Source: Candidatus Latescibacterota bacterium (GTDB taxonomy: Bacteria > Latescibacterota > UBA2968 > UBA8231). From it: a stretch of DNA of 64,000 bases. Below, piece by piece: positions 8,436 to 42,898 of this stretch (its first letter is position 1; the number at the start of each line of letters is the position of its first letter). The notes beneath the pieces are model-generated. The model was not told the origin of the DNA. It searched no databases and saw nothing but the letters and a program-made list of their open reading frames with translations. The DNA lies in assembly GCA_965208105.1 (NCBI GenBank), contig OZ242318.1:2080001-2144000 (forward strand), in the 5' to 3' direction. The translations under genes were made by a program, and so were the position numbers.

Positions 8436-8860
8436 AGCGACACCACTTACAACGTTTTGGAAGTGGTGGAAAAAAGTGTGGATATTATATGGAAATGGGG
8501 GAATTATGGCCCTGAATACGATTTCAGGGCAGAAGTGGTCAATGTTTCCGATTTGGTTCTGACGGACCTTAAGATTTGTCTCTGCTTGTATAGAAAAACA
8601 GGAAAATCATGGCGTGCACTATCGAACGTCCCCGGACACGCTATCGATACGGGCACCCATCCCGACCGAGAATAGTCCACCCAGGGGAAACTATAACAAT
8701 CAGGGAAACATTCGATGTTCAGGATACGCCCTCAAATGAACAGCCCTTGTTCCCGGCCTACACATTTGAGTTCTCATACAGCATTGTCCCCCCTACAACA
8801 ATCAAAGCCACAAGCTGGGGAACCCTAAAATCGAGAAAGGTGGCCCCCTATGTCTACTGA
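8436..8860 (+). pseudogene. 5'-truncated, frameshifted secreted protein (paralog of 41586-42146) ending in the SWG tail
   Basis: LEVVEKSV...AEVVNVSD...LYRKTGK / PGETITI aligns with LELVEGSM...ARLVNKTN...LFRTDGK / PGETLPF; ends TTIKATSWGTLK. Confidence 0.6.
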
Positions 8861-9590
8861 AACTCTGGATGCAGGGCGTCTATACTTCGGAGACTGGCTG
8901 CAGGTCATGCGAGAAGATATTGCATCGGAAACTGTTGATCTCATCTACCTGGACCCCCCCCTTCAATTCCAAGCGTCTCTATAACGCCTATATCGGCGGT
9001 GCTCAATGGGTAGCTTTCACTGATACGTGGAGGTGGAGCGAAGCCATAGGCGACTTTGAAGAGATGGCTTCCCGCGTTGACATGGCCGACCTGATGGAAA
9101 GCTTGCGGACTATTTTGGGAGAAGGCCCCAATCTTGCCTATTTGTCCTACATGGCGAATCGGCTGTATGAATGCCGCCGCGTGCTCAAGGATACGGGCAG
9201 CATTTATCTCCATTGCGACCCCACCTTTTCGCACTATCTCAAGATAGTAATGGACAGGATTTTTGGGTGCGAGAATTTCAAGCGAGAAGTTGTGTGGAGC
9301 AACGAGGATCAGTCAGGCTTTAAATCCCTCGCCTCGAATTGGGTCAGGGGACACGATACACTGCTCTTCTATGCCAGGTCAAGAAAAAGCCTGAAATTTC
9401 ACAAACAATATAGGCCTCTGGACGAAAAGACAATAAAGCGATACGACAAAGTGGATGAGAAAGGCAAGAGATTTAAAATTTACAGAAACAAAGATGGGTC
9501 TGAAAGATGGGTCTGAAAGATGGGTTTACTTGAATGAAGATCGCGGCGCACCCATAGGGAGTGTGTGGTCTGATGTTCCTGGCTTTCAAA
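8850..9590 (+). pseudogene. N4/N6 DNA methyltransferase (beta type), frameshifted and truncated
   Basis: LYFGDWL...VDLIYLDPPF(+1 at C8 tract)NSKRLY, RVLKDTGSIYLHCD; a 13-bp duplication near 9490 breaks ...KDGSERWVYLNEDRGAPIGSVWSDV. Confidence 0.85.
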
Positions 9591-9897
9591 AGGAAAATAA
9601 TACAGGGGAGTATATTGGTTAGGGAATTATAAACTGTTGCCATTAATTTCCAACCTTGCTCCCGAGAGGAATCCCTCCCTGGGTTTCGGAAGTGTTCAAA
9701 CCCAAGTGCCCGGCAAGCGTCCAGGACGGACCTTCTCAACCGCCAATCGCTTTCTTACCATTCTTGCCTTTATCCCTACCTAGACCTTATGTATTGACGG
9801 GTATATGAAAGACCTCCTCCGATTTCGGTTTTCGGGGGTTATCTTTGGGAAAACTCAGTTCACCCAAAGACCTATCCCCAGCGAAAAGGAGGAGGCC

Positions 9898-11037
9898 ATG
9901 CGTAAATCTACGAAATTCGTCGCCTTGGACATACATAAAGATTCGATCACCGTCGCTCTTACCGGTGAGGGCCTCCAAGGGCCAAAGCTGTATGGAACGA
10001 TACCGTCTACGGGCGCTGCGTTGTCCAAGCTGGCGGGCCAACTGGCCCGTGGTGGGACCTCGTTGCGGTTTTGCTACGAGGCCGGACCCTGCGGCTACGG
10101 CGTCTACCGTCAGCTCACAGCCCTGGGGCACGCCTGCACGGTGGTGGCGCCCTCGCTGATCCCGCGTCGGCCGGGCGACCGCATCAAGACCGACCGCCGC
10201 GATGCTGTGTCTCTGGTGCGGCTTTTCCAACACGGCGAGTTGACCCCCGTGTGGGTGCCCGACGAAGCGCAGGAGGCGATGCGCGATCTGGAGCGCTGCC
10301 GGGAAGACTTCAAGCACGCCGAGCGCCGCGTGCGCCAGCGGCTGAACAGCTTCTTGCAGCGCCACGGCCGGATCTACTCCGGGCGCAGTCGCTGGACCCA
10401 AGCCCACTTTCGCTGGCTGGAGACCCAGCGCTTCGATCATCCGGCCCAGCAGATCGTCTTTCAGGAATACGTGGACGCGGTACAGGAAGCCCAAGGTCGG
10501 ATCCAGGGGTTGGACCAGGCCCTGCAGCAGGCGCTGGAGGGATGGTCTTTGGAAGGGGAGACGCGGGCTATGAGGGCGCTGCGCGGGGTAGACACGCTCA
10601 CCGCGGTTACGACCCTGGCCGAGCTGGGGGACCTCACCCGCTTTGACTCGCCGCGCCAACTGATGGCCTTCGTCGGTCTGGTCCCCAGCGAGCATTCCAG
10701 CGGCTCCCGCCAAAAGCGAGGGGCGATCACCAAGGCGGGCAACGCCCACGTGCGGCGCGTGCTGGTGGAAGCGGCCTGGTGCTATCGCTTTCCCGCCCGC
10801 AAGACGGCCGCCTTGCAACGACGCGCCGAACAGACCGCACCCGCCATACAGGCCATCGCCTGGAAGGCACAGAAACGCCTGTGTGGACGCTATCGACGGC
10901 TGAGTGGGCGAGGGATGCCGAAGAACAAGGTGTGCTGCGCGATCGCGCGGGAGCTTTTGGGTTTCATCTGGGCCATCGCCTGGGAGCAGAAACGCCCCGG
11001 CCGCCTCGTGGCCAGGAGACCTCGGATCGCCGCCTGA
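9898..11037 (+). CDS. IS110-family DEDD transposase/recombinase, apparently intact
   Basis: GGAGG RBS; ALDIHK, YEAGPCG, KTDRRDA, GLVPSEHSSG, ITKAGN. Confidence 0.92.
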   Translation: MRKSTKFVALDIHKDSITVALTGEGLQGPKLYGTIPSTGAALSKLAGQLARGGTSLRFCYEAGPCGYGVYRQLTALGHACTVVAPSLIPRRPGDRIKTDRRDAVSLVRLFQHGELTPVWVPDEAQEAMRDLERCREDFKHAERRVRQRLNSFLQRHGRIYSGRSRWTQAHFRWLETQRFDHPAQQIVFQEYVDAVQEAQGRIQGLDQALQQALEGWSLEGETRAMRALRGVDTLTAVTTLAELGDLTRFDSPRQLMAFVGLVPSEHSSGSRQKRGAITKAGNAHVRRVLVEAAWCYRFPARKTAALQRRAEQTAPAIQAIAWKAQKRLCGRYRRLSGRGMPKNKVCCAIARELLGFIWAIAWEQKRPGRLVARRPRIAA

Positions 11038-11039
11038 TA

Positions 11040-11315
11040 AGCTCATCGTCTCAGAAGCCGGCATAGGACCTTTGCTCATGTAAATCGAAACGGGACAGAA
11101 GGGACCGGTCAGGAGAATCCTCGAAGACACTATGAGGCGCCTTTTCAGGCTGACCCTCGACCCTAGATTGAGGCCGCTCCGCGACGCACCCAGGACAGGC
11201 GGTAGCCAACCCGCGAATATCAGTCGGATCAACCGTCGCTACAGCGTCCCTTCTGTTGCCGAACAAACTATGCAAAGATAACACCCGAAACGACCACCCC
11301 GGAGAGGGTTGACAA
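11040..11315 (+). ncRNA. Putative bridge/seek RNA of the IS110 element
   Basis: Non-coding stretch between transposase stop and right IR, where IS1111-type elements encode their guide RNA; boundaries approximate. Confidence 0.55.
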
Positions 11316-11362
11316 CCGTCAATACATATCAGTGTTGTGTCCTGCAAATAACTTCAATAATT

Positions 11363-11562
11363 GGAGGGCGCTGAAAGCGTCCATTCTCTCTAGTATTTCA
11401 AAAATTCGGCGCCGCGAAATAATGCAAGGAATTTCCAGGACGCAACACTAGTCTCGAATTTAGAGGCAAAGTCCCCTTTTTTTCGTACTGGACAGACGGA
11501 CTGTAGTGCCTTTGGCCAGGCCCCGATAGCGTACCTTGCGATGGCCCCAAAGGTGCTTGATG
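11363..11562 (-). mobile_element. IS5-family 3' remnant
   Basis: IKHLWGHRKVRYRGLAK fragment; IS5-like end GGAGGGCGCTGAA at 11363. Confidence 0.55.
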
Positions 11563-12006
11563 ACCCCACTTCCACGCTACTACGCACCCATCCGCCACCC
11601 TCTCGTCGGTCCCCTTCCCGGTGTCTCCGGTTATAGGACCTACCCTGCTCCGGCGGTTTCGCGCCGGGACGAGGAGGGCTTCTCCAGTTGCTCGGCATGT
11701 CCTTGCCATCATGCCGTCGCTGCCACCCCGCCGAAGTAAAGCAGCCGTCTCATTCAGCCTTCGGCTGCCCATGCTGCCTTCGCCGTACGGTTGTCGGCTC
11801 GGCCTTCGGGGCTTCGCATTTTCGGGGCCATCTCTGCGTTCACTTTCGTTACGGCCCGATGACTCGCAGTCTCCCCAGGGAGACTCTGTCGATAGGCTTC
11901 AGGATGTTGGTTTCCCGCCACCCTGCTATCCAAGCTACGGGGCCGCTGACTCCTACCCCGGCAGGACTGTCCTCCTGGTGAACATGCCAGCCTTCGCTGG
12001 ACACAC
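11563..12006 (-). mobile_element. Group II intron 5' part (about domains I-III), 3'-truncated, inserted in another intron
   Basis: Starts GTGTGTCCAGCGAAGG (GUGYG consensus) immediately after domain V of the outer intron; ends in a domain III-like GTAGTAGCGTGGAAGTGGGG. Confidence 0.7.
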
Positions 12007-12473
12007 AACCGGACATGTGACTCTCGGCGCATTCGGCTCTCCCCATATCCACTCCTATATGTGGCACCTAATCTCCCGTCCACTGGTGCAGCTCCAATTG
12101 CATCCCTCGTACCCGGGACACGGGCACTTCGAGGTCGGGCCACGGTGCGCCCATGTTCATCAGCGACCTCCATGGTATTTGTCGTTGCTGGGAATACGCT
12201 GTTGGGTCCTTCGCCATGTGACCGGCTTCCCCGGCCTCGAACTACTACGACCCCTCCGCCACCTCCCCTCGGTATCGACTTGCGACGAGCCTTCCCGCCG
12301 GTCCGCTCGCGAAGCGGGTGGAGGTGGGGCCGCAGGGAAGGTTCCCACGTTAACTGTCCTACCGTTCGACAGGGGAGGTACCCAACTATGCCTCTGCGGT
12401 ATCGCCACGGCTACGCCGAAGGCTTTCACCGTGGCCTCCCTACCGGCGACCTTTACCCGGCACAGGAGTTCCC
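12007..12473 (-). mobile_element. Group II intron with deleted RT ORF
   Basis: Domain V GAGCCGAATGCGCCGAGAGTCACATGTCCGGTT (12007-12039); domain I-III-like motifs (AACGTGGGAACC, GTCGTAGTAGTTCGAG); 30-aa RT N-terminal stub MNMGAPWP...MQLELHQW at 12068-12160. Confidence 0.8.
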
Positions 12474-13013
12474 AGCACCATTCAAGTCACCGCACAGGGG
12501 GCGACCTCGACAAAGGCCTGCGGGATGCCGCCCCAGCCGACGTAGAGGGAGAGTTTCTGCTTCTCCTCGGGGTCGGCAGCCGGTGGTTTTCGGCAGGGCT
12601 CTCGCCCTTCAGAGGGTTGGGTGCGGGTCCCCGAGGTTCGGATGTTCCTCCTCGCTCGGGAGAAATATCTCCTGATTCGCCAGTTCGTCCGCCGTCTCGT
12701 GATTCGCTCCGTTCGCCCTCGCGCGGTAATACACTTTGGCCGCCCTCTCCTGCGCCCTCACCACCATCGGCACCAGCTGGCCGTCCTTCTCCAGCTCCCG
12801 GCACATCTTCGGTCGGGCCTCCTTCCACTGCTGCAGGGCCTTCCAGCCCCGCCCGATCAGCTTCTCCCTCGTGTCTTCTTGCTCGTTCATCTCTCTCCTC
12901 CCGCCTGGTAGTGGTCGTTTCAATCCACGCCCCCGCACGGGGGGCGACTTGACGAAGCTGACGGTTGATGGACTGATTGACGTTTCAATCCACGCCCCCG
13001 CACGGGGGGCGAC
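12474..13013 (-). CRISPR. Type I-C mini-array: two perfect 32-bp repeats, one degenerate terminal repeat, spacers of 33 bp and 411 bp
   Basis: GTCGCCCCCCGTGCGGGGGCGTGGATTGAAAC at 12982-13013 and 12917-12948; 22/32 match (15/16 in its 5' half) at 12474-12505. Confidence 0.85.
12609..12890 (-). CDS. Small TnpV-like mobile-element protein located inside the CRISPR array
   Basis: RBS AGGAGAGAG then ATG; 93 aa WKEARPKMCRELEKDGQL...A.EL.N.EIFLP.E; family assignment from memory. Confidence 0.55.
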   Translation of the reverse strand: MNEQEDTREKLIGRGWKALQQWKEARPKMCRELEKDGQLVPMVVRAQERAAKVYYRARANGANHETADELANQEIFLPSEEEHPNLGDPHPTL

Positions 13014-13198
13014 TGTTGCAAGTTAATTCCTTGCGTACCAACACAAAAATTGCGCCACTGCGCGAACCACCAACTGGTGTTTTAGTTTCGCTAGCTACCG
13101 GCACTATCGTGACTCGAATCCCTTTAAGTTCCAATAAGTTATATAGTGCGCGGACCTCCCCGTGTTTACCTGACCGCTTGTGGTTCGCACCAGCCTTC
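13014..13198 (-). promoter_or_regulatory. CRISPR leader
   Basis: More AT-rich non-coding segment between cas2 and the first repeat, with GCGAACC...GGTTCGCG motifs typical of I-C leaders. Confidence 0.75.
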
Positions 13199-13489
13199 TC
13201 ACACAATCAATGTTCCGTTCAAGTCGGTGGCCGGCTTGGCACCGATGTGCTCTACACGTCGCTTCCCATTAGCACCGAGAAAATAATACCTGAGACTGTC
13301 GGTTTCCGGATTGATGATCGCCTCAAGTTGGACCTTCAAGGCGGCCCATTGCGCCGGCTCCACCTCAATCTCGAACACTGAAAACTGCACTCTTTGTCCA
13401 AAATCGCGACAGGTCTTAGCGACACGTCGTAAACGACGTGCGCCGCCATCGGATGTCGTCGAGACATCGTACGTAACGAGAACCATCAT
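13199..13489 (-). CDS. cas2: CRISPR-associated Cas2
   Basis: MMVLVTYDV...RLRRVAKTC...GQRVQFSVFE...DSLRYY. Confidence 0.95.
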   Translation of the reverse strand: MMVLVTYDVSTTSDGGARRLRRVAKTCRDFGQRVQFSVFEIEVEPAQWAALKVQLEAIINPETDSLRYYFLGANGKRRVEHIGAKPATDLNGTLIV

Positions 13490-13551
13490 GGTTGTTTGTT
13501 TTTTCTTCCTCGCGGATACGGCTGTCGTTTAAGAGGGTATGTTGAGTAGCC

Positions 13552-14586
13552 TTATTTCCATAACCACGGCGGGTGGGCGTCTAAGTCACCTCGAAGATGC
13601 CGAGCCAGCAATTGCGCTTGGAGATATGGAACCAAGCCGAGTGGTGCCTGCTCCCCAAGAAAAGGATGACGGCGCCCTACACGCTTTCGCTCCTGCCAAG
13701 CACTGAGAACGGTCTTGCGAGCGGCATCGCTCATTGAAACGCTGCCGCCTTCTCGGATTTGGAAGTCTTTAGCGCGTACTTGCCGACGATTGACTAGCGA
13801 TAGCGCGAGCCGGTCAGCCAAGACTGGCCGTAGCTCTTCCATAAGGTCTAACGCCAGACTCGGACGGCCGGGACGATCTCTATGAAAGAAACCCACGGCC
13901 GGATCCAAGCCTACGCTCTCGGCGGCAGAGTTGCAGTCGTGGACGAGAAGGGTATAGAGAAATGAGAGCAGGGCATTCACAGGGTCACGTGGTGGCCGAC
14001 GGTTGCGGCCAGCAAATGCCATCTCTGGTTCGGGTACGCGGATCAGGAGACCAAAGACCGAAAAATAGAGCCGTGCGGCCTCGCCTTCAAAACCTCGTAG
14101 CCTGTCAATACTGTCTTGGCCGTCGCTGATGCGTTGCACAATCTGCCGCAGACGATTCGTCGCGACGGACATAGCTTCGCAGCTAGAAGACTCAAGTTCG
14201 TCGCCATAGTCACGCTGTGCTCTTTGCAGGACGCTTCTCTGATTAGCGATCTTGCCGACGAGAATGCTGCGGACGATTTCTTCCGGTGTGTCGCTGGCTC
14301 CATACTGTGCACGACGCAGCAGTACATTGCCAGAAACTGGTCCCTCGACTCGGGCTTGGAATCGGCCGAATCGACTTAGGAGTACTAAAACGATGCCACC
14401 GGCAGCACATGCTTGGATCAGAGGTGGAGATATATAGATGCTGCCGAACACCACCACGGACCCAAGCATGTGGAATGGCACCCTCACACGTTCCTCGCCC
14501 TCTACTTCCGCGACCAGATTCTCGCCGTCCTTGGTCAGACGTGCTTCAGGCGTAGTAACGTATAGCGTATTGAGCAATCGCCTCAT
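13552..14586 (-). CDS. cas1: CRISPR-associated Cas1 (I-C)
   Basis: MRRLLNTLYVT, LRGFEGEAA, RRPPRDPVNALLSFLY, LALDLMEELR. Confidence 0.95.
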   Translation of the reverse strand: MRRLLNTLYVTTPEARLTKDGENLVAEVEGEERVRVPFHMLGSVVVFGSIYISPPLIQACAAGGIVLVLLSRFGRFQARVEGPVSGNVLLRRAQYGASDTPEEIVRSILVGKIANQRSVLQRAQRDYGDELESSSCEAMSVATNRLRQIVQRISDGQDSIDRLRGFEGEAARLYFSVFGLLIRVPEPEMAFAGRNRRPPRDPVNALLSFLYTLLVHDCNSAAESVGLDPAVGFFHRDRPGRPSLALDLMEELRPVLADRLALSLVNRRQVRAKDFQIREGGSVSMSDAARKTVLSAWQERKRVGRRHPFLGEQAPLGLVPYLQAQLLARHLRGDLDAHPPWLWK

Positions 14587-14588
14587 GG

Positions 14589-15311: not shown

Positions 15312-15329
15312 TGTCCCGCACGAAGGCAG

Positions 15330-28036: not shown

Positions 28037-28062
28037 GTTATTTCCTTTGAATGGCAGGCCGG

Positions 28063-29711: not shown

Positions 29712-32078
29712 ATGAGGCCGGCTGAAGAATTGGAACGAGAAAACAGGGCGTTGCGGGAGCGTCTGGCCCAATCTATCGAGGTCAGCCTGCGCATCAACGA
29801 GAGTCTCGATTTCAACACCGTACTGCAAGGGGTCCTGGACTCGGCCCGGTCGCTGACGGGGGCCCGGTATGGGGTGATTACGGTGGGAGACGGTTCGGGG
29901 CAACCGGAGGACTTCCTCTCCTCGGGGTTGACGGCCGGGGAGGCGGACCAACTGTGGGACCTGCCCGACGGCCCGCGCCTGTTCGAGTATCTCGGCGGCC
30001 TTTCAACACCGCTGCGGCTGGCGGACCTTCTGGTCCACCTCTCCTCGTTGGGCCTTCCCGACCATTTCCCTCTCGTGGCGGTGACCCCGAAGTTCTCCTT
30101 CCTTGGCGCTCCGATTCTCCACCAAGGCCAGCGGGTGGGGAACATCTACCTGGGCAAGAAGGAAGCGGGCGAGGAGTTCACCGAGGCCCATGAGGAGACC
30201 CTGGTCCTGTTCGCCGCGCAAGCCGCCATGGTCCTATCCAACGCCCGCAGATACCGGGATGAGCAGCGGACCCGAATGGATCTGGAGACGCTGATAAACA
30301 CCTCACCGGTGGGGGTGATCCTCTGGGACGTGAGGACCGGCAGGCCGGTTTCGTTCAACCGGGAAGTCCGAAGGATCGTCGACGGCCTGCGCAATCCGGA
30401 CCAGTCGCCCGGAGATCTCCTCCAGATTTTGACCTTGCGGCGCGGAGACGGGCGAGAGGTCTCCGTTGCCCAGACGCTGAGCGACTGTGAAACCGTGCGG
30501 GTCGAGGAGATCGTCCTGCGGGTGCCCGACGGCCGGTCGGTCACAGTGCTTCTCAATGCGACGCCGATCCGCTCGGAGGAGAACGGCGAGGTGGAGTCGG
30601 CGGTGATGACGCTGCAGGACATGACCCCTCTGATGGAGGTAGAGCGCCTGCGGGCCGAGTTTCTCGCCATGGTGAGCCACGAGTTGCGCGCCCCTCTGAC
30701 CTCCATCAAGGGTTCCACGGCCACGGTGTTGGGCGACCCCTCTACCCTGAGCGCGGCCGAGATGATTCAGTTCTTTCGCCTCATCAACCGTCAGGCCGAC
30801 CATATGAGTGGCCTGATCAAGGACCTGCTGGACGTGGGCCGCATCGAGACGGGCACCTTGCAGATCGATCCAACCCCCACCTCGGTGGCCGGCCTGGTGG
30901 ACCAGGCCCGCAACACCTTTTTGGGTGGGGTGAAATCAGGAAACCTTCGGATCGAACTGGCGGTCGATCTTCCCCGGGTGATGGCGGACAGGGGGCGCAT
31001 CGTCCAGGTGTTGGGCAACCTGCTGTCCAACGCGTTCCGGCACTCTCCCCAATGGGGGGCACCCGTCCTGGTTTCGGCGGTGGAGGAGGAGGTTCACGTG
31101 GCGGTATCCGTTACGGACCGGGGCCGGGGAGTTTCGGCCGAGCAGTTGCCGCACCTGTTTCGCAGGTTCCCCCGCTTCAACGGGGAAGACGGGGAGGGGA
31201 AGTGGGGGGCAGGCCTGGGCTTGGCCATCTGCAAAGGCATCGTGGAATCCCACGGGGGCCGAATCTGGGCCGAAAGCGAAGGGGAGGGCCGGGGGACGCG
31301 CATCACCTTCACCCTCCCCATCGTCGAGGAAGCCGCCATGGTCGTTGCGGGGGAAGCCGAATCCGGCTCCCCTCGCCGACAGGGCGGGAAGAGGCCGACC
31401 CCCATCCTGGTGGTGGACGATGACCCGCAGACCCTGCTGAGCGCGCGGGATACCTTGTCGAAAGCGGGGTACCAGACGGTGGCCACCGGCGATCCGGCGG
31501 AGGTACCCCTCCTTCTGGAGGAGCACCGTCCCCACCTGGTGCTTTTGGACCTGATGCTGCCCGAGGTCGACGGCATCGAGCTGATGCGGCAGATGTTCGA
31601 AATAACCACCTTGCCGGTCCTCATCCTGTCCGCCTATAGCCAGGAAGAGGTGATGGTCCGGGCCCTCGACGCCGGGGCGGCGGATTACGTGGTCAAGCCC
31701 TTCTCTCCGAATGAACTGACGGCCCGGATCCGGGCAGCCCTGCGCCGGGGCGCCTCACGAACCGAGCCGACCGAACCCTGCCTCTTGGGAGATCTGGCCA
31801 TAGACTACGTGGGACGGCGGGTGACGGTGGGAGGGCGGCGGGCGCGGTTGACCAACATCGAGTACCGGTTGCTGGTGGAGCTATCGGTCCATCTCGGCAG
31901 TGTAGTGACCTACCGGGAGCTGCTGCAGCGGGTCTGGAGGGGGAAGGCCCCGTCCGACCTGCGGTCGCTGCGCTCCGCGGTGAAGAGCCTACGCCGCAAG
32001 CTGGGCGACGACGCCCAGAAACCCGCCTACCTCTTCAACGAAGCTCGGGTCGGCTATCGGTTGGGAGGGGCTGAATAG
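29712..32078 (+). CDS. Cytoplasmic hybrid kinase-regulator: GAF-PAS-HisKA-HATPase-REC-OmpR winged helix
   Basis: SHELRAPLTSIKG, NLLSNA, GAGLGLAI, LVVDDD/LLDLMLP/KPF, LTNIEYRLL...GYRL. Confidence 0.92.
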   Translation: MRPAEELERENRALRERLAQSIEVSLRINESLDFNTVLQGVLDSARSLTGARYGVITVGDGSGQPEDFLSSGLTAGEADQLWDLPDGPRLFEYLGGLSTPLRLADLLVHLSSLGLPDHFPLVAVTPKFSFLGAPILHQGQRVGNIYLGKKEAGEEFTEAHEETLVLFAAQAAMVLSNARRYRDEQRTRMDLETLINTSPVGVILWDVRTGRPVSFNREVRRIVDGLRNPDQSPGDLLQILTLRRGDGREVSVAQTLSDCETVRVEEIVLRVPDGRSVTVLLNATPIRSEENGEVESAVMTLQDMTPLMEVERLRAEFLAMVSHELRAPLTSIKGSTATVLGDPSTLSAAEMIQFFRLINRQADHMSGLIKDLLDVGRIETGTLQIDPTPTSVAGLVDQARNTFLGGVKSGNLRIELAVDLPRVMADRGRIVQVLGNLLSNAFRHSPQWGAPVLVSAVEEEVHVAVSVTDRGRGVSAEQLPHLFRRFPRFNGEDGEGKWGAGLGLAICKGIVESHGGRIWAESEGEGRGTRITFTLPIVEEAAMVVAGEAESGSPRRQGGKRPTPILVVDDDPQTLLSARDTLSKAGYQTVATGDPAEVPLLLEEHRPHLVLLDLMLPEVDGIELMRQMFEITTLPVLILSAYSQEEVMVRALDAGAADYVVKPFSPNELTARIRAALRRGASRTEPTEPCLLGDLAIDYVGRRVTVGGRRARLTNIEYRLLVELSVHLGSVVTYRELLQRVWRGKAPSDLRSLRSAVKSLRRKLGDDAQKPAYLFNEARVGYRLGGAE

Positions 32079-32879
32079 GAAAAATCTGCGGGCAGGCGAC
32101 CCCTCGTCACCCGCTCACCCATCCGGTCGAATGATCGGAAAATCCACCGCTGTCCCGATGGCCGGAAAGGAGGATCGAGGCCGCTTCGATCTGGGCGAAA
32201 TGGCCCAAGCTCCGAAGGCTCACCAAGTTCATTGGAGACCCATAAAACGCCTTCGGTGCCGATCATCTTCCCCCAGGTCCCCTTTGGCTGTTTCGAATCC
32301 AGGTTAACCAGGCATCCTCTCCAATGACCGTCTTCCTGTCCTGAATCGCACCGCCCTCCTACGACCCCGTACCGGGCTCCCTTCAGCATCCGGGTGGGGC
32401 ATCTGGACCGCAGTATACCCCCACTTCAAAGATGTACAGGCCGACCTCGCTCCATCGAGAAGGCCCACCGGCAGCGCAAGGTTTTCTCGTTCGAGCTCCT
32501 TGGCCGGCCTCCATTAGCTCCTCTTGGCCGAGGGTCCTGCCCTTAGGGGCTCCACCCTCGGATAGGGATTCGGAGGCCACCTGGAATACCCCATCGTGTG
32601 GAAGGGGCAATTCTAAACAGGCGGATTTAAATTTTCCACCAAAACACCATCAAAATAAAGCTAATTCCACCAATATTTCACTTAAAGATATGTATCTTAG
32701 ATTGACGATAATTTCTGGCTACGCCCAAGAGATTAGACCTTGAGGAAGAAGCTGGAGACCTGGAAGAGCCCCATTCCCCTTTCGGTCCATATCATGTGCG
32801 CCGGGGAGGGCAAAATGGGGGATTTGTGGCCTGGGTCGAACGAGTTGATCCGAAAAACATACGGAGGATGAAAATCACC

Positions 32880-33458
32880 ATGAAATCAATCCCCATCCTG
32901 ATGGTCATGCTTCTTTCCCTCGCCGTGGAAGTCCTCGCCCGAGATTCTGAACTGGTGGGACGATGGGAGACACGCACTGAGGAGGAGGCCGGAATCCTTT
33001 CAAGTATTATGAGCCTGGGGCCGGACGGCGCATACAAGCTCGAGCTGTTTGCCCAAGATGAAACCGGCGGTGCGCTCCCTCACACTATCGAGGTCCTCGA
33101 TGGTCGGGTATTCACCGGCGAATGGAATACCACAGACAGCCTGCTCGTCATCCACATTGAACTGACCCCGGATGTAGCCATGTTTTTTGCTTTGGTGGTA
33201 GCCGGTCTGCAGATGGATCTCACTGGCGAGGAGGTCAGTCCGGAGGAATTGCAGGAATTGGCGGCCCAGGTCGAGGCCGACCTGCGGAGTTTCATCGAGG
33301 AGACGGGTAGCAGTCTGGTGCCCTTCATGGAAATCACCTACGAGCTTTCAGGCGATACGCTCGTTTTCCATGACGAGGACGGCCCTACCATCTGGCATCG
33401 ACTATCGCGGACGGCGGTTCAGAGGGCAAGCTGGGGCCAAATCAAGGCGGATTGGTAG
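32880..33458 (+). CDS. Secreted lipocalin-like protein with SWG tail
   Basis: Signal peptide, LVGRW, YELSGDTL, ends TAVQRASWGQIKADW. Confidence 0.75.
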   Translation: MKSIPILMVMLLSLAVEVLARDSELVGRWETRTEEEAGILSSIMSLGPDGAYKLELFAQDETGGALPHTIEVLDGRVFTGEWNTTDSLLVIHIELTPDVAMFFALVVAGLQMDLTGEEVSPEELQELAAQVEADLRSFIEETGSSLVPFMEITYELSGDTLVFHDEDGPTIWHRLSRTAVQRASWGQIKADW

Positions 33459-34081
33459 GAAAAAGGCATGCAAGGGTCCCATTCGAAGTGCTCCGGTAGG
33501 GCCGATTTGGTGGGCCTCCTAACCGTCGGTCGCGCTGAGGGTCGCGGTCCGGAGCACGGCAATCTCTGATGGTCAATGTGTTCAAGCCTCGCTTCTGTCT
33601 GCGTTGCCAAAGGGATATTACTTACTCGCACGGCAACGCAAAGTATTGCACTCGGTGTAGACCAATAATAAAGCTGGAACAGGTGTGGAAAAATCGATCC
33701 CTCAAGAGGCCAAAGAAACAAGAGTGAACATTTGAAAACCAGGGGTGGTTTTGAGGGGACTCCCAAAGCTGAATCACCTTGGATGTGAGGGTGGAGGTAT
33801 TTTGCTTATTCCGTTTACAATTCTCTGGTTGATCGAGGCCATGGCCATATTGACCAGAAATGGCATGTATACGAGGAAAATCTGCTCGAGAAGGCAAGGT
33901 GCGATCCAAGCAAGCATGCCCTGATGATCGACCTGAAGCCAAATAGCGAAGAAATTGACATGTATCGGATTCGGAATGTATGAGGAGATTCCGATGAATT
34001 CTGGAATCCAATACTGCTTGAATGGTAACAGCCTTCAGGGCCGCTTTCTTTTGGCTCAAGGACAGAAAAGGAGGGGATGAT

Positions 34082-34660
34082 ATGTGCACCATTCTGTTAC
34101 TTTTGTTTTTACCTCTGAGCGCCGCCTGGGCTCAGGCAGGGTTTATCGGCACCTGGACGGGAGTAGTTGACACGGAAGACGTGGGGGTGGATGAGGTGGA
34201 AATCCAGTTCAAGGAAGATGGCGTTCTGGTCTACATCCAGAAGGTCACATTGGACGACGAGGGTTCCGAGCCGGTCGAACTGGCTCTGGAAGGCACCGGC
34301 ACTTGGCGCACCGCCGGCGAGAATATCTGGTTGGAAGTAACCGAGATCGTCCTCGACGACCACACTCTGGCTCTGTTGACCGAGTTCGCCAAAGGCATAG
34401 CTCGAGCTGTGGCCGACATCCTGGGCATCTCAGACGAGGATTATCCGGCTTTCGAGGCGGACGCTGTGGCGGAGTTCATGGCTGAGTTTGAGCAAACGGC
34501 AGAGGGAGTGACCGCCTCCGGGACCTTTGCCGTGGAAGGCCATACCCTGACCCTGGAAATGACCGACGAGGAGGGGAGCCACTACACCTTCGAACTCCAA
34601 CGAAAGTTGACGGCCGTCAGGAAAATCAGTTGGGGCCAGATCAAATTATCGAGGAATTGA
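34082..34660 (+). CDS. Secreted lipocalin-like protein with SWG tail
   Basis: GGAGG RBS, signal AWA-Q, FIGTW, FAVEGHTL, ends TAVRKISWGQIKLSRN. Confidence 0.75.
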   Translation: MCTILLLLFLPLSAAWAQAGFIGTWTGVVDTEDVGVDEVEIQFKEDGVLVYIQKVTLDDEGSEPVELALEGTGTWRTAGENIWLEVTEIVLDDHTLALLTEFAKGIARAVADILGISDEDYPAFEADAVAEFMAEFEQTAEGVTASGTFAVEGHTLTLEMTDEEGSHYTFELQRKLTAVRKISWGQIKLSRN

Positions 34661-37686: not shown

Positions 37687-38160
37687 ATGAAAGTCCATTT
37701 CAGACCGGTTGAAATCAGGCGGATGGCGCTCCTGATGGGGTTTCTCGCCGTGTACGGATGCGGCGAAGACGAATCGGCACTTGAGCCGTCTCCCCCCGAG
37801 GTCAATGTGGTGGTCGCTGACGGGCGCGACTGGGGCGACGACCCCTACGTCGTGAACTCGGCCGCCATCGACGGGCACCTGCTGACCATCGTAGTCTCAT
37901 TCAGTGGCGGCTGCCGGAGGCATGACTTCACTCTGGTGATCTCGGAAACGTTCAGGGAATCTAATCCGGTGCAGCTTCCTGCTGTGCTCGCTCATGATGC
38001 GAACGGGGACACCTGCGAGGCGTATCCGACCGAATCCCGCGTTTTCGACCTCGCCCCGGTCAGGACGCGCTATCAGCAGTTCTACGGACCCGGTCCGGGC
38101 CAAGTCGCTCTGCACATCGCGGGCGTTTCCGGCGACGACCTCCTCTACGAATTCGACTAA
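37687..38160 (+). CDS. Lipoprotein, NigD C-terminal-like
   Basis: Lipobox VYGC; SFSGGC..HDF.L...ESNPVQ...HDANGDTCEA. Confidence 0.7.
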   Translation: MKVHFRPVEIRRMALLMGFLAVYGCGEDESALEPSPPEVNVVVADGRDWGDDPYVVNSAAIDGHLLTIVVSFSGGCRRHDFTLVISETFRESNPVQLPAVLAHDANGDTCEAYPTESRVFDLAPVRTRYQQFYGPGPGQVALHIAGVSGDDLLYEFD

Positions 38161-38450
38161 CGGGCCAGACGCGGAGGCGCATGGGGAAAACTCCTGCACG
38201 AGTTCCCCATTCTCATGAGCGCATTATCACCTATATCCTTCCCACTCAACGGTTAAGAGGAATCATCACGGCTCGCACCGTGAAAGTCACCAAGAAGGCG
38301 CCCAAGTGATGCATCATAGGAAGGGGCTTCGTGCTGCCATCACTTTCGCAAAAATCTCAGGAGTTGACCGCGGTTGACCCTCACGTTCCGGGGTTCAGAG
38401 GAAAATACGCCAGGTGACTGGTATTGCTCGTGGGGGAGGCCGAGGAAGCC

Positions 38451-41400
38451 ATGAGAAATTTTACACCCATCCTATCCCTTGTGCTCTGGTCATTGAGTTG
38501 GCCTGCGTTCTCCTTGGCCGAAAACCCGCACTTCCACCAGCCGCTCGATCCGGAGAGGCTCGAGCGGCTTCTGCAACACGCTGCGGCCAAGCCTGCTCTC
38601 CAGGATGCAGGAGAACCACGCACCGTGCGAATGATCTACTTCCTGTCCGATCCGCAGGGCTTCCGGCAGGAAGTGGTGGACCGAATGAAGACAACGATCC
38701 GGGAGGTACAGCGCATTTTTGCCGATCAGATACGGGCGCACGGATTTGAGGAAACTACATTCCGTTATGAGAAGGATGCACAGGACGAGCCCATGGTTCA
38801 CCTCATATATGGGACCGGAGGCCATTACGACCCTTGGCGCGCCCTTGGACGTATTCATCAGGAATTCGATCTCAACGCGAACGTCTATTTCATCGTCCTT
38901 GGCAGCGAGGAAGATCTTCCATCTCGAAACACCATAGGAGGACTGGGACAGCAGTATACAAGGACCGGGGGCTGGGCGATGTTGAGGCAGGATCTCTTCC
39001 CCGATTTCGTTGCCTCGGCGGCCCATGAACTGGGGCACGCTTTCGGATTGAAGCACAATTTCAATGACGGGGAGTACATCATGTCCTATGGCCCCGGACA
39101 AAACAGGTTATCCGAGCTCAGCGCAGGCCACCTGGCCGTACACCCCTATTTCAACCCGGCCAGTCCCACGGACCAAGAATGGTACACCGAGTTGCCCACG
39201 GGGCAAGTTGTTTCCTCGCGTACCTACCCGACAGATGCGACAAGCGTCCCCATCCGGCTCGAGTTCAGCGACCCGGACGGTCTTCAGCAGGTATCTCTAT
39301 TGGTTACCACGCCGGAATCCCACTTTTCCGCGGGCTTTTTCGAATTGAAGACAGGCCGCCTGCTGAGGGGCGCGACGGAGGCCGTCGTCGACTTCGAGTA
39401 TGACGGGATCATTCCATCGGACAGGGACTCTACGAGTCTCTCCGCCCTCCTCACGCACAGGATAGAGTTCGAGGTCGTGGACATGCTCGGAAATATCGGC
39501 AGGATAGGCCTGTCGCTGCTGCATGAGTCGACCCACAAGCTCGTCATCCCCCTGGACCGGCGGGAAAGGATCGGAGCCTATGGGGTGACCTATTCTCCCG
39601 ATGGCAAAATTCTTGCCTCAGGGCTGGAGAACCAGACCGTTGCCTTGTGGAACGCCGAGACCGGGGAACATCTGACCACACTAGCGAGGTATGAAGGGAT
39701 GGTCTGGTCCCTGGCCTTTTCCCCTGATGGGACGGTTCTCGCCACGGGGACCTGGGAAGGCACCATCAAGCTATGGGACACGGCGACGTGGACGGAGATC
39801 GTCACCCTACGGCATGGAGGCGAGGCAGGTCGGATCTATTCCCTGGCCTTTTCCCCCGATGGCAGGACCCTCGCCTCCGCGTTGACGGATGAATGGACGA
39901 GTCCGGCCAACACGATCAAGCTGTGGGAGGTGTCCACATGGGCCGAGGTCGCCGAGCTGAAAGGGCATGAGTATGGTGTCAGGACCGTAGCGTTCTCGCC
40001 GGATGGAGGGACCCTGGCCTCAGGTGCTTTCGACGGCACGATCAGGCTGTGGGACGTGGCCACAGGAGCGCAGGTCGGATATATCCCCTATGAGGCCGCG
40101 GTCACTTCCGTGGCCTTCTCGCCGGATGGAAAAACCCTCGTTTCGGGAGCTTTCAACAACATGGTCGCCTTCTGGGACGTTGAGCAGAGGACCTTCAAGG
40201 CTCAGTTCGAGGTAGCCAGACAGAATCTCCTGCGCTATGTCTCCTTCACCTCCGATGGCGGGAAAGTCGTCTCCGCGACACAGGGAGGGGCCATCGAGCT
40301 CTGGGAGGCGGATCTGCAGGCCGGGAGAATAGAGAGAGTCGCGGCCTTTCAGGCGGCCAGCGGCGACCAGCTGTACAACACTTCGGGGGCATTTTCTCCC
40401 GACGGCACGATCCTGGCCACGGCCCTGGGCAATTGGGGACAGGGGGATTACACCATCATCCTGTGGGACCTGTCCCCTTACGTCACCCCCGTTGTTCACG
40501 TGGCCGACTTCAACCTCAAGGCGGCGGTTCGAGAAGTCCTGGGCAAGTCCGATTTCGGCCCCCTCTTCAGGGAAGACATGGAGCGGTTGACCACACTCGA
40601 CCTGAGGAACCGGGAGATTCGCGATCTCCTCGGTCTCGAGTGGGCCACGCGACTGACGCGCCTCGATCTCAGGGGCAATCCTCTGAACACATCTGCCCTC
40701 AGCGCCTATATTCCAGCTCTGGAAGCCAGGGGCGTAGAGGTTTTGTTCCCACCTACCCCGCTGGTGGTGGCCAAGCTCTCGGACGACGGCCAGCAGGCAC
40801 GGTCGGGCCGTCGAGTTCAGGATCCTCTTGTCGTCGAGGTGCTTGATCAGAACGGGCGGCTCCTGCCGGGAGTGGTCGTGGAGTTTTCGGTTACCGAGGG
40901 GGAGGGCTCCCTTTCGGCATCCACTGACACCACCGACGCCATGGGCCGCGCCTCCACGGTCCTGACCATCGGGGAGGGGACAGGTACCCTCACCGTGGCG
41001 GTGAGGGTGAACGGCCTTGACCCGGAAGTCTTCACCGTCACGGCTTTTCCCATGGGAGACTTCAATGGCGACGGAGTAACCAGTTATGACGACTTCTTCC
41101 TCTTTGCCAAGGCGTTCGGCAGCAGCGACCCCCGCTTCGACCTGGACGGAAATGGCAAGGTGGGTATTTCCGACTTCTTTATCTTTGCCGATCATTTTGA
41201 GCAAGGACCCCGGTCGAAGCTTGTTGCCCTTGCGCGGGAGTTGATCGGTCTGCCTGAGTCAGCTACTCTGCACCAGAACACACCCAATCCATTCAACAGC
41301 CAGACCGTGATTTCCTGGTTCCAGCCGGTGCCGGGGACGGCGCGCCTTGAGGTGTTTTCCCTTGCAGGCCAAAGGATAGCGGTGCTAAGTAGGGGAATCC

Positions 41401-41534
41401 GAAAGGCAGGCACTCACCGGTTGCCCTGGGACGGCCGGGATGATCAGGGACGCCCGGTTGCTACCGGCGTCTATTTGTGTCGCCTGGTGACCGTCGATGG
41501 GGTGCAGACGCGCAAGCTGTCCCTGCTACGGTAA
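38451..41534 (+). CDS. Secreted multidomain protein: metzincin protease, WD40 propeller, LRR, Big-1 Ig, dockerin/EF-hand, T9SS-A/FlgD CTD
   Basis: HELGHAFGLKH...IMSY; about seven AFSPDG..LA..S...I.LWD units; LDLRNREIRDLLGLE; GDFNGDG/DLDGNG; LHQNTPNPFNSQTVI...WDGRDDQG...GVYLCRL. Confidence 0.9.
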   Translation: MRNFTPILSLVLWSLSWPAFSLAENPHFHQPLDPERLERLLQHAAAKPALQDAGEPRTVRMIYFLSDPQGFRQEVVDRMKTTIREVQRIFADQIRAHGFEETTFRYEKDAQDEPMVHLIYGTGGHYDPWRALGRIHQEFDLNANVYFIVLGSEEDLPSRNTIGGLGQQYTRTGGWAMLRQDLFPDFVASAAHELGHAFGLKHNFNDGEYIMSYGPGQNRLSELSAGHLAVHPYFNPASPTDQEWYTELPTGQVVSSRTYPTDATSVPIRLEFSDPDGLQQVSLLVTTPESHFSAGFFELKTGRLLRGATEAVVDFEYDGIIPSDRDSTSLSALLTHRIEFEVVDMLGNIGRIGLSLLHESTHKLVIPLDRRERIGAYGVTYSPDGKILASGLENQTVALWNAETGEHLTTLARYEGMVWSLAFSPDGTVLATGTWEGTIKLWDTATWTEIVTLRHGGEAGRIYSLAFSPDGRTLASALTDEWTSPANTIKLWEVSTWAEVAELKGHEYGVRTVAFSPDGGTLASGAFDGTIRLWDVATGAQVGYIPYEAAVTSVAFSPDGKTLVSGAFNNMVAFWDVEQRTFKAQFEVARQNLLRYVSFTSDGGKVVSATQGGAIELWEADLQAGRIERVAAFQAASGDQLYNTSGAFSPDGTILATALGNWGQGDYTIILWDLSPYVTPVVHVADFNLKAAVREVLGKSDFGPLFREDMERLTTLDLRNREIRDLLGLEWATRLTRLDLRGNPLNTSALSAYIPALEARGVEVLFPPTPLVVAKLSDDGQQARSGRRVQDPLVVEVLDQNGRLLPGVVVEFSVTEGEGSLSASTDTTDAMGRASTVLTIGEGTGTLTVAVRVNGLDPEVFTVTAFPMGDFNGDGVTSYDDFFLFAKAFGSSDPRFDLDGNGKVGISDFFIFADHFEQGPRSKLVALARELIGLPESATLHQNTPNPFNSQTVISWFQPVPGTARLEVFSLAGQRIAVLSRGIRKAGTHRLPWDGRDDQGRPVATGVYLCRLVTVDGVQTRKLSLLR

Positions 41535-41585
41535 AATCGATAACCTTTGGAAGTTTAACGATCCCTGCTTGAAGAGGAAGGGCTT

Positions 41586-42146
41586 GTGAGTTTCCGAGGA
41601 AGAGCAGCCATACTACCTCAACAAGGGGAAAGAGGACCTGATAGGTTCCTGAACCAGCTCTGGAGCCGGCTTTTCAGTATGTTGCTGATTGTAGGGTTCA
41701 TCGGGATTTTGGTAGGGTCTCTGCCCGGCCAGGAATTACACAAAGACCATGTATTGGGAGACCTGGAGCTCGTGGAAGGCAGTATGCGGCTCGAATATAC
41801 AGGGTACACGAATGGGAATCACCGATTTTTCTGCTCTGCGCGGCTGGTCAACAAAACCAATGCGGTCGTTCAATGGGTCCGCGGAACTTTGATTTTATTC
41901 AGAACAGATGGGAAGAAGATGTGGTCCGAGGTCTGGGTAAACGAACCCGTCGACCAGGAACTTGCTCCAGGAGAGACCCTGCCATTCCATCTGGATTTTT
42001 CTGTCCCCCCGGAGGCGGTCGGGAGAGGGGGCATTCCCACTCCCCTGAAGTACTCTACCGTTTTCTGGTTTTGGCCTGTGCGATGGGTGAACCCCACATC
42101 CGTTGCCTCCACCAGTTGGGGAAGGCTGAAAGGAGCGGTCAAGTGA
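41586..42146 (+). CDS. Secreted FxLYD-like Ig-fold protein with SWG tail (start may be 41679)
   Basis: Hydrophobic signal; LAPGET; ends TSVASTSWGRLKGAVK. Confidence 0.7.
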   Translation: MSFRGRAAILPQQGERGPDRFLNQLWSRLFSMLLIVGFIGILVGSLPGQELHKDHVLGDLELVEGSMRLEYTGYTNGNHRFFCSARLVNKTNAVVQWVRGTLILFRTDGKKMWSEVWVNEPVDQELAPGETLPFHLDFSVPPEAVGRGGIPTPLKYSTVFWFWPVRWVNPTSVASTSWGRLKGAVK

Positions 42147-42256
42147 TGATGAGTTTGAATTGCCGAATGATGATATTGACGGCTTCGGTCCTTATAGTGT
42201 GGAAACTGTCCCGGAGCGAACCTTATGTACTCTTGGTTTTCTTGTTCTTCATGTGG

Positions 42257-42898
42257 GGTAGTGTCTCAGTTTGAAATTGGCCTATGGGTTAGGCAATAGC
42301 AAAGTGGCAAAGACCTTTACTATTTTCTTATTCCTGGTTTCTTGGAACAGCGTCCAAGGAGAGGAATGGAACGGCCTAAACGTGGCCCCAGAGGATAGAT
42401 GCAGTCGGTATGACCGCAGAGACTATCCGTATCCACAATCAATTGAGCTTGCCCTCATTGAGCGCGACGGCCTTATTTCTCGCTACACAGGGCGGGTTTT
42501 CGCATCGCGTGATTCGTCAAATATAGAGCATATCGTAGCCACCAGTGAGGCCCATGATTCGGGCCTATGTGCCGCCTCCGATTCGACGAAGAGGGCATTT
42601 AGTCGCGACTTGCTCAACTTGGCACTGGCCAGTCCACAATTAAACCGCTATGAAAAGAGAGATAAAGACGCGGCTGACTGGCTTCCGCCTCTAAATCAAT
42701 GCTGGTTCGTCCAGACCATCATAGCGGTGAAACAGAAGTACATGTTGACCGTATACGAAGCGGAGCGTGACGCATTGCAAGCCGTCTTGGACGAGTGCTC
42801 CGCCACCACTACAAGCTTTAATAGCTGGGGTCGCCTAAAAGCATGGTTCAGACGCTTGATGCCAAACCCATAGGCCAATTTCAAACTGAGACACTACC
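42257..42898. mobile_element. Non-autonomous IS1-end cassette
   Basis: Perfect 34-bp IRs GGTAGTGTCTCAGTTTGAAATTGGCCTATGGGTT; first 22 bp identical to the IS1-family end at 57466. Confidence 0.85.
42271..42873 (+). CDS. Secreted HNH (DUF1524-like) nuclease with SWG tail (start may be 42304)
   Basis: IEHIVATSEAHDSG, NLALA...LNRYEKRDKDAADWLP, VKQKY; ends TTTSFNSWGRLKAWF. Confidence 0.8.
   Translation: MKLAYGLGNSKVAKTFTIFLFLVSWNSVQGEEWNGLNVAPEDRCSRYDRRDYPYPQSIELALIERDGLISRYTGRVFASRDSSNIEHIVATSEAHDSGLCAASDSTKRAFSRDLLNLALASPQLNRYEKRDKDAADWLPPLNQCWFVQTIIAVKQKYMLTVYEAERDALQAVLDECSATTTSFNSWGRLKAWFRRLMPNP

Follow-up and report, generated by a model that had tools for sequence, protein, structure and literature searches.

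A short C-terminal tail on unrelated exported proteins of a Candidatus Latescibacterota bacterium as a candidate localisation or docking tag

Exported proteins of a Candidatus Latescibacterota bacterium share a C-terminal tail of about 16 conserved residues with the consensus P-T-A-V-E-x-x-[ST]-W-G-x-[ILV]-K-x-x-[FYL]-[RK], after which 0-12 more residues follow, often basic ones. It is found on about 30 proteins in this bacterium and on hundreds of others across two little-known phyla, and it is confined to the C-termini of proteins with signal-peptide-like N-termini. The tail behaves like a previously undescribed short C-terminal tag, and we lean, with some reserve, towards its being a portable localisation or docking tag that acts at the peptide level. 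A sequence-only reading of a stretch of 64,000 nucleotides (contig OZ242318.1; hereafter the window) had noted five such tails; this observation was confirmed and proved far larger than first noted, and the interpretation attached to it was partly supported.

A six-frame scan of the window revealed five matches to S-W-G-x-[ILVM]-K (8813-8830, 33429-33446, 34628-34645, 42114-42131, and 42823-42840), every one on the plus strand, and the ends of their open reading frames (8860, 33458, 34660, 42146, and 42873) as well as their sequences agreed with those first given. All five display T-x-[VIT] six residues upstream, and their distances to the stop are 3, 4, 4, 9, and 10 residues, which matches the original range of 3-10. 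The first gene (8412..8860, plus strand) is frameshifted, its 5' half (8412-8603) and 3' half (8609-8860) lying in different frames, and its paralog L017 aligns to it as two pieces in frames 3 and 2 (tblastn, E 2e-20); the 3' half had earlier been taken for a mere fragment. Its tail, T-T-I-K-A-T-S-W-G-T-L-K (8795-8830), is followed by nine residues. The gene at 32796..33458 (plus strand) encodes an exported protein of no confident family, 220 aa from the longest start, with a likelier start near 32868 (MKITMKSIPILMVMLLSLAVEVLA) and the tail T-A-V-Q-R-A-S-W-G-Q-I-K at 33411-33446, then three residues. An exported lipocalin-like protein (34022..34660, plus strand; likelier start near 34082) ends in T-A-V-R-K-I-S-W-G-Q-I-K (34610-34645) and four further residues; its Lipocalin_4 Pfam match is weak and below the cut-off (E 3.7e-4), and a paralog, L002, lies at genome positions 594435-595082. 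The exported protein at 41586..42146 (plus strand) has no Pfam match and belongs to the same family as 8412-8860 and L017 (28% identity to the latter, E 5e-8, blastp); its tail, T-S-V-A-S-T-S-W-G-R-L-K, is located at 42096-42131 and precedes four residues. Finally, an exported protein with a GmrSD_C (HNH-type nuclease) domain (42271..42873, plus strand; PF07510, E 2e-7, 31.4 bits against a cut-off of 23) carries T-T-T-S-F-N-S-W-G-R-L-K at 42805-42840, then ten residues. A Cys is found three residues upstream of the motif in this protein.

Three unrelated folds had been proposed for these carriers; the GmrSD_C assignment stands above its cut-off, while the lipocalin-like one falls below and the family called Ig-like has no Pfam match. 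Unrelatedness is amply shown elsewhere in the genome, where the carriers form 17 sequence clusters, at least 15 of them unrelated, with domains that include FGE-sulfatase, PD40, sCache, CBM96, HmuY, CBM9, lamin-tail, GmrSD_C, and the weak lipocalin-like match. The tail begins only 2-5 residues past the folded domain.

Across the 4.85 Mb genome, S-W-G-x-[ILVM]-K occurs 37 times in six frames; 31 of these 6-mers lie at most 13 codons before a stop, and for 28 of the 31 the frame is 52 codons or longer. In total, 30 tail ORFs were found, against a chance expectation of 0.7. A proxy proteome of 3281 non-overlapping ORFs gave 21 matches where 0.68 are expected from composition; of the 21, 20 fall in the last 15 residues before the C-terminus, a zone holding 4.8% of residues. 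An N-terminal hydrophobic segment, defined as a 12-mer with a Kyte-Doolittle value of at least 2.0 in the first 70 residues and used as a heuristic stand-in for a signal peptide, was seen in 22 of 23 tail ORFs of the proxy set and in 745 of 3258 others (Fisher p 1.8e-13). Both enrichments anticipated by the sequence-only reading, at C-termini and in signal-peptide proteins, were thereby borne out.

The tail is under selection at the peptide level. All 137 aligned tails have W and K, and T, V, and G are each conserved in at least 90% of them. The Ser of 28 tails is encoded by both codon families (AGY 19, TCN 9), and third codon positions are free (0.08-0.66 bits) whereas the first and second positions of W, G, and K reach 2 bits; selection therefore acts on the peptide rather than the DNA, and a DNA-level repeat is ruled out. 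The stop codons of the tail ORFs follow ordinary usage (TGA 21, TAA 5, TAG 4), a second in-frame stop lies within 36 codons downstream in 24 of 30, and no in-frame extension past the stop was seen, which rules out a longer domain hidden by read-through.

No Pfam or NCBIfam model covers the tail. Among 94 tail proteins, no Pfam family matches more than seven and no NCBIfam 20.0 family more than five at E ≤ 0.1; none of the sorting-signal models fits, and the tail regions of the window proteins lack any NCBIfam match at E ≤ 1. Literature listings and the opening parts of abstracts, including a term look-up in 10.1101/2023.06.07.544157, yielded nothing on the motif.

AlphaFold2 models of two carriers suggest a loose, flexible appendage. 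In the CBM9-like carrier c1, the tail was modelled at a pLDDT of about 48-50 and the core above 90; in an FGE carrier, whose model is mediocre (mean pLDDT 65, 7 sequences), the tail reached 30-35. In both, it is unpacked on the core and without packed strands, low confidence being no proof of disorder, and the c1 model shows a one-turn helix across W-G-x-I-K. No transmembrane helix was detected in the tail, as the sequence-only reading had stated: no 12-mer in the last 25 residues exceeds a Kyte-Doolittle value of 1.15, and the median is 0.26.

The tail is an alternative to the lipobox, the T9SS CTD, and a C-terminal PKD domain. The genome displays 47 T9SS CTD matches, 45 above the cut-off (TIGR04183, 72 positions), and none falls within any of the 30 tail ORFs, in line with the mutual exclusivity put forward as a check. 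One of the 47 lies in the window, on a 1036-aa protein without the tail (38424..41534, plus strand) that combines WD40 and dockerin regions with a type A CTD (30.1 bits against a cut-off of 23). Lipobox-like N-termini occur in 0 of 28, 5 of 94, and 0 of 120 tail proteins in three sets, compared with 109 of 756 other ORFs with an N-terminal hydrophobic segment. Tags are also exchanged inside domain families. The sCache domain is found with the tail in three proteins and with a T9SS CTD in one 901-aa protein. The tail or a variant is present in 120 of 120 best homologs of c1, and the c1-like proteins of a tail-free family (f10) bear a C-terminal PKD domain. A lipobox is present in one of the four nearest FGE homologs from tail-free families, and a second has a dockerin-like repeat at its N-terminus. 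Such cases are few, comprising one Cache protein, one family (f10), and four FGE homologs; together with the at least 15 unrelated carrier clusters, this tag-swapping means that the tail is portable.

Of the known systems, the T9SS CTD (TIGR04183/Por_Secre_tail) is similar in being C-terminal, lacking a transmembrane helix, occurring on Sec-exported proteins of the same organisms, and having many unrelated passengers, with the same Cache domain bearing either. However, the CTD is a folded Ig-like beta-sandwich with a 72-position model and the tail, as first noted, is far shorter, its 16 residues being modelled as unstructured; the two share no sequence likeness and are never on the same protein here (0/30). 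Sortase-type signals (LPXTG, PEP-CTERM, GlyGly-CTERM, PGF-CTERM, and MYXO-CTERM) are likewise short C-terminal motifs on unrelated exported proteins, in tens per genome, patchy across lineages, and with basic residues after the motif; each of them was found before its enzyme, which came later via phylogenetic profiling. In these signals, a transmembrane helix must separate the motif from the basic cluster, and a membrane enzyme cleaves them, whereas the tail has no hydrophobic stretch, and its linker of 2-5 residues contrasts with the long linkers of most of them. Dockerins, Ca-binding repeat domains some 60-70 residues long with cohesin partners, resemble the tail in being an added module by which exported enzymes and binding domains of many kinds could be docked onto a scaffold, but the tail is far shorter. 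An outer-membrane beta-signal, with an aromatic last residue of a beta-barrel, does not correspond either; the carriers are soluble domains, and the extreme C-terminal residue of tail proteins varies (R, K, N, W, P, F, E, and others).

Beyond this genome, the DNA pattern T-A-V-x3-[ST]-W-G-x-I-K gave at least 121 matches with one genome searched per GTDB species, and in 117 of the 121 matches listed, a stop lies 3-13 codons past the K. Within the window's phylum, for which related records are mostly Latescibacterota, the tail profile was detected in 92 of 168 genomes; in a second phylum, Eisenbacteria by record, 53 of the 81 genomes sampled have it. Latescibacterota, named in the sequence-only reading as a source of similar tails, fits the matching records, while Poribacteria, also named there, is absent among the 80 records listed of at least 120.

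Neither the neighbourhoods nor the profiles examined revealed a receptor, partner, or processing enzyme for the tail, and none of PorU, the c4 lipoprotein, and T9SS cargo matches it phyletically. A portable secretion, anchoring, or docking tag with a cognate receptor or processing enzyme had been proposed; portability holds. T9SS presence is not a sufficient cause, since, in the window's phylum, all 168 genomes have CTD cargo and 92 the tail. PorU is missing from the tail-free families f2, f3, and f4 (0/56 together) and present in f10 (12/13), f13 (1/1), and f14 (4/5), which are tail-free as well; three genomes of the second phylum without the tail also have it. Canonical PorU/PorV was accordingly rejected as the partner, and PorU is at most necessary, not sufficient. 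As T9SS cargo is universal and PorU occurs in tail-free families, a dedicated machine has no phyletic support. The commonest carrier, c1, lies in an operon with c3 (about 900 aa, no Pfam match), the lipoprotein c4, and the CTD protein c0. The c4 and tail profiles agree in 157 of 168 genomes; however, the tail-free families f10 and f13 have c4 as well, and both c4 and c1 went undetected in five genomes outside the window's phylum that carry the tail, so the c1/c4 operon was rejected as a universal partner; in the ESM Atlas, c4 retrieved unnamed lipoprotein clusters only. Neighbours common to the tail loci of both phyla were limited to CTD and FG-GAP proteins. In this genome, a 365-443 aa protein without Pfam match and a hybrid kinase recur beside tail genes, and no link of either to the tail was seen. 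The kinase is represented in the window by a hybrid histidine kinase/response regulator (29712..32078, plus strand); a paralog at 3147801-3150212 of the genome also adjoins tail genes, and a Pfam scan of this paralog, rather than of the window copy, gave the domain string GAF-PAS-HisKA-HATPase-REC-Trans_reg_C. A PMT_2 glycosyltransferase domain occurs in one of three scanned TPR neighbours, and the G000 homolog has TPR matches only; this neighbour was rejected as partner for its inconsistency across loci.

According to the reading that we favour, the tag is joined by a very short linker to unrelated soluble domains exported via Sec. After export, a conserved envelope component would read the tag and hold the protein at, or hand it to, a defined place. 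This destination may most likely be the outer membrane or cell surface, since many carriers have domains typical of surface or extracellular proteins (CBM9, CBM96, HmuY-like, lamin-tail, nuclease) and since the T9SS otherwise exports the same Cache domain. The conserved Trp, Gly, and Lys together with the T-x-V strand suggest that a protein recognises the tag by its sequence, and non-covalent docking appears rather more probable than cleavage or covalent attachment via Lys.

Two alternatives can each be regarded as improbable to a similar degree. One holds that the motif is a post-translational modification site, such as a Trp-Lys cross-link, a Lys linkage to peptidoglycan or a glycolipid, or Thr/Ser glycosylation. 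Radical SAM enzymes make Lys-Trp cross-links, and the invariance of W and K in all aligned tails, the high conservation of T, V, and G, and the PMT_2 domain in one of the three TPR neighbours are consistent with it, but no co-occurring modifying enzyme was found. Lpp is joined to peptidoglycan through a Lys, linked by an L,D-transpeptidase, that is its last residue, whereas the K of the tail is followed by 3-12 residues in 30 of 30 tails of this genome and by 3-17 overall. W and K are spaced i, i+4. A modification could itself belong to a sorting mechanism, and in this respect the two readings overlap.

According to the other, the tail binds membrane, lipopolysaccharide, or peptidoglycan directly, which would predict the lack of a phyletically matching partner, as found. 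PBP5, MinD, and FtsA have C-terminal amphipathic anchors, and these share with the tail a short C-terminal peptide with Trp, aliphatic residues, Lys/Arg (27% of residues downstream of the K in this genome), and a predicted short helix, as modelled over W-G-x-I-K in c1. Against this, the helical hydrophobic moment of S-W-G-x-I-K-x-x-x equals the background, with medians of 0.33, 0.37, and 0.32 in three sets of tails and 0.33 in 3315 background C-terminal 9-mers (90th percentile 0.60), so that a generic amphipathic anchor was rejected, and the hydrophobicity near the C-terminus is low. Generic anchors also keep amphipathicity, while the tail keeps its sequence (the upstream T-A-V-E strand, W-G, and K) over two phyla and dozens of families.

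Still less probable is that a periplasmic chaperone or protease, instead of a localisation system, recognises the tail, either as a signal for degradation or quality control or as a peptide for autoinhibition or oligomerisation. C-terminal peptides are indeed what PDZ domains and tail-specific proteases recognise, and both models leave the tail exposed and flexible, but a degron is hard to motivate on at least 30 diverse, constitutively encoded proteins with conservation in two phyla, and hard to square with the alternation against lipobox, CTD, and PKD; moreover, PDZ-type recognition takes the last 4-5 residues, the variable part of the tail. Origin by chance, translation of a DNA repeat, or a longer C-terminal domain truncated or read through at stops can practically be dismissed on the match counts, codon usage, and stop usage given above, and no point in its support was found.

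As a bolder and tentative possibility, one we would not put at even chances, the tail could be the signal of a new envelope-sorting pathway in FCB-group candidate phyla, in which a dedicated receptor or enzyme would read the unstructured 16-residue peptide and deliver Sec-exported folded proteins to the surface, or fix them covalently via Lys, beside the T9SS and lipoprotein routes, with the PKD domain of f10 as a replacement. LPXTG, PEP-CTERM, GlyGly-CTERM, MYXO-CTERM, and the T9SS CTD are signals that each led to a sorting machine, and the tail displays the hallmarks that precede such a finding, namely tens of copies per genome, unrelated passengers, patchy phyly, and exclusivity with other anchors; unlike them, it has neither a membrane helix nor a folded domain. 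In two uncultured phyla with essentially unstudied envelopes (Latescibacterota-like and Eisenbacteria-like), it marks a sub-proteome of binding modules, FGE-like enzymes, propellers, Cache sensors, and a nuclease. The clean presence and absence of the tail across both phyla makes a partner search by phylogenetic profiling feasible, and the tail profile would allow better annotation of thousands of "hypothetical" proteins.

A six-frame scan of the window revealed exactly five matches to S-W-G-x-[ILVM]-K and no more, all on the + strand, with a stop 3-10 residues downstream and T-x-[VIT] six residues upstream, in agreement with the five tails quoted in the sequence-only reading. In the 4.85 Mb single-contig genome from which the window comes (G000; the window spans bases 2,080,001-2,144,000), the 6-mer was found 37 times in six frames; 31 of these matches lie at most 13 codons upstream of a stop, 28 of them in frames that stay open for 52 codons or more. 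With these matches as the basis of a profile, and with a strict regular expression added, 30 tail ORFs plus about three divergent candidates were obtained. In a set of 3281 non-overlapping ORFs used as a proxy for the proteome, 21 matches were observed compared with 0.68 expected from composition. The expected enrichment at C-termini was evident here, 20 of the 21 matches falling within the last 21 residues, positions that make up only 4.8% of all residues, and so was that in proteins with signal-peptide-like N-termini, as judged by N-terminal hydrophobic segments, a heuristic distinct from a signal-peptide predictor (22 of 23 tail ORFs vs. 745 of 3258 others; p 1.8e-13).

One tail gene of the window is frameshifted (5' half 8412-8603, 3' half 8609-8860, + strand); it is homologous to locus L017 and to the window gene 41586-42146, and is directly followed by an ORF at 8869-9516. 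Two tail remnants were seen elsewhere in G000, namely a 16-codon frame with a perfect tail at its end (793073-793114) and a 58-aa fragment (L020, 2397901-2398077) near-identical to the terminal part of L021. The two remnants and the frameshifted gene of the window point to a turnover of tail genes.

Stripped of their tails, the 30 carriers of G000 fall into 17 sequence clusters. According to Pfam, they include a cluster of seven FGE-sulfatase proteins, four PD40 propellers, three proteins with a single or double Cache domain, and carriers with CBM96, HmuY, CBM9_1, lamin-tail and GmrSD_C domains, as well as a lipocalin-like protein with a weak match, while several clusters revealed no Pfam match; the proposal that the tail sits on unrelated carriers thus stands. 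None of the 30 carriers has the C-terminal domain (CTD) of type IX secretion (T9SS) cargo, against 47 CTD matches genome-wide, so that tail and CTD are mutually exclusive in G000, and in no tail protein do the last 25 residues reach the hydrophobicity that a membrane helix needs, both as anticipated. Lipobox-like N-termini were found in none of 28 tail proteins of G000, in 5 of 94 from other genomes and in none of 120 homologs of the CBM9-like carrier c1, compared with 109 of 756 other G000 ORFs with N-terminal hydrophobic segments.

Some carriers recur in characteristic surroundings. A repeated cassette of G000 (2198122-2214583 and 3152142-3155446, L148) consists of a PD40 propeller gene, an FGE-sulfatase tail gene and a gene for a 362-443-aa protein without signal peptide or Pfam match, of which there are four paralogs; seven tail genes lie inside 17 kb. 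Paralogous hybrid kinase/regulator genes adjoin small exported tail proteins of the lipocalin-like type (window 29712-32078; G000 3147801-3150212), the latter displaying a GAF-PAS-HisKA-HATPase-REC-Trans_reg_C architecture with no transmembrane segment noted, and a 240-aa paralog (G000 1065790-1066512) lies near a Cache tail gene.

Within domain families, the tail is exchanged with other termini. Three tail proteins share a Cache domain that is present in two copies in a 901-aa protein ending in a T9SS CTD. Five of the six FGE paralogs in G000 carry the tail and the sixth a lipobox. The four closest FGE homologs inspected in the tail-free families f2 and f4 of the same phylum end right after the domain, one of them having a lipobox and another an N-terminal dockerin-like repeat. 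The tail or a variant of it was found in all of the best 120 of 261 homologs of c1; in the tail-free family f10, c1-type proteins (L149-L158; 3-8 copies per genome) bear a C-terminal PKD domain at the exact position of the tail.

Selection acts on the tail as a peptide. The serine codons of 28 tails are both AGY (19) and TCN (9), third codon positions hold almost no information while positions 1 and 2 of the W, G and K codons never vary, the stop codons show ordinary usage, and no long in-frame extension beyond the tail stop was found. Across all tail sets, the consensus is P-T-A-V-E-x-x-[ST]-W-G-[RQ]-[ILV]-K-[AS]-[ST]-[FYL]-[RK]. In G168, a genome titled Eisenbacteria, a Cys precedes the T of T-A-V-E by 2-6 residues in most tails (L164-L183), a feature shared by several loci titled "uncultured bacterium" and by the window gene 42271-42873.

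An AlphaFold2 model of a CBM9-like carrier (L008, 56-row alignment) showed a confident beta-sandwich with CBM9 entry 1i82 as its best PDB match (E 3e-12); its tail has a pLDDT of about 48-50 and is unpacked, with a single helical turn over W-G-x-I-K. For an FGE carrier, AlphaFold2 gave a weaker model (7 rows, mean pLDDT 65), whose tail has a pLDDT of 30-35 and lacks secondary structure. The tail's helical hydrophobic moment is at background level.

The possibility of an already characterised domain was contradicted by Pfam and NCBIfam scans, in which no match covered the tail in the window proteins; in a set of 94 complete tail-bearing proteins taken from other genomes, the best Pfam family matched at most seven and the best NCBIfam family at most five, though all 94 share the tail. 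Literature searches on the motif in variant spellings, and on protein sorting in these phyla, yielded nothing relevant at the level of listings and the openings of abstracts. A term look-up in a preprint of 2023 that deals with new C-terminal sorting signals (10.1101/2023.06.07.544157) gave no match. The motif is apparently undescribed.

A 19-column tail profile (A1; E 1e-3 or better) matched 92 of the 168 genomes of the window's phylum. By family, f1 (75/75), f5 (3/3), f6 (3/3), f7 (1/1), f8 (1/1), f9 (2/2), f11 (1/1) and f12 (5/6) were positive, and f2 (0/31), f3 (0/3), f4 (0/22), f10 (0/13), f13 (0/1) and f14 (0/5) negative, f2-f4 belonging to the same class as the window. The DNA pattern T-A-V-x3-[ST]-W-G-x-I-K, run over one genome per GTDB species, gave at least 120 loci. 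In 117 of 121 listed matches a stop follows 3-13 codons after K; two others are clearly non-terminal, and two enter masked sequence or run off the sequence end. Titles among the listed loci are mostly Latescibacterota, with Gemmatimonadota, Eisenbacteria, Handelsmanbacteria and Coatesbacteria besides, and none of the 80 titles from the at least 120 listed loci names Poribacteria. Such titles are depositors' labels and cannot serve to count phyla, since two loci titled as other phyla lie in genomes whose match coordinates equal those of f1 members; the labels Gemmatimonadetes and Handelsmanbacteria conflict with the GTDB-based grouping, which places these genomes in the window's own family. A broader profile from 137 tails (A5; E 1e-4 or better) matched 53 of 81 sampled genomes of the phylum of G168, or 52 of 80 without G187, which is flagged as unpublished; a single genome has as many as 29 matches. 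The tail is certainly present in a second phylum; a Coatesbacteria-titled genome had three matches.

Half of the listed pattern matches are c1, which lies in a recurrent operon of the order c3, c1, c4, c0 (L026-L145, e.g., L050:21-6497 and L084:1380-5377; in G000 at 3858451-3877356 and 4586321-4599145), with TPR, FG-GAP and PPIase genes nearby. Protein c3 (about 900-1000 aa), which begins with a signal peptide and often ends in an aromatic residue, has no Pfam match and at least eight full-length paralogs in G000; c4, a lipoprotein of about 265 aa, is conserved and likewise without Pfam match, and c0 (about 650 aa) combines discoidin with a CTD-like end finishing V-A-Y. Many G000 paralogs of c3 and c0 occur without c1. 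The operon has the look of an uncharacterised system for capture or transport at the outer membrane. In the window's phylum, c4 follows the tail closely: all 92 genomes with the tail have it, and f2, f3, f4 and f14 lack it. It is also found in the tail-free f10 (10/13) and f13, and both c1 and c4 are missing from G168 and three tail-rich relatives, so c4 was rejected as a general tail reader. No non-tail neighbour common to the tail loci of both phyla was found. T9SS cargo is universal in the window's phylum, and canonical PorU is absent from f2-f4 but present in the tail-free f10, f13 and f14, as well as in genomes of the second phylum that lack the tail. In place of canonical PorU, f2-f4 have only a PorU-like protein of about 1900-2000 aa, also present in G000 as a second copy (3099186-3103979); 5-25 CTD proteins are nevertheless encoded in each.

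That the tail is a modification site seems unlikely, direct binding of lipid or wall by the tail is doubtful in like measure, and a degron or similar function we consider very improbable. Chance or artefact is excluded. The motif is real, C-terminal, portable and widespread, and its best reading, which we judge somewhat probable, is that of a tag for localisation or docking that an envelope component would read.
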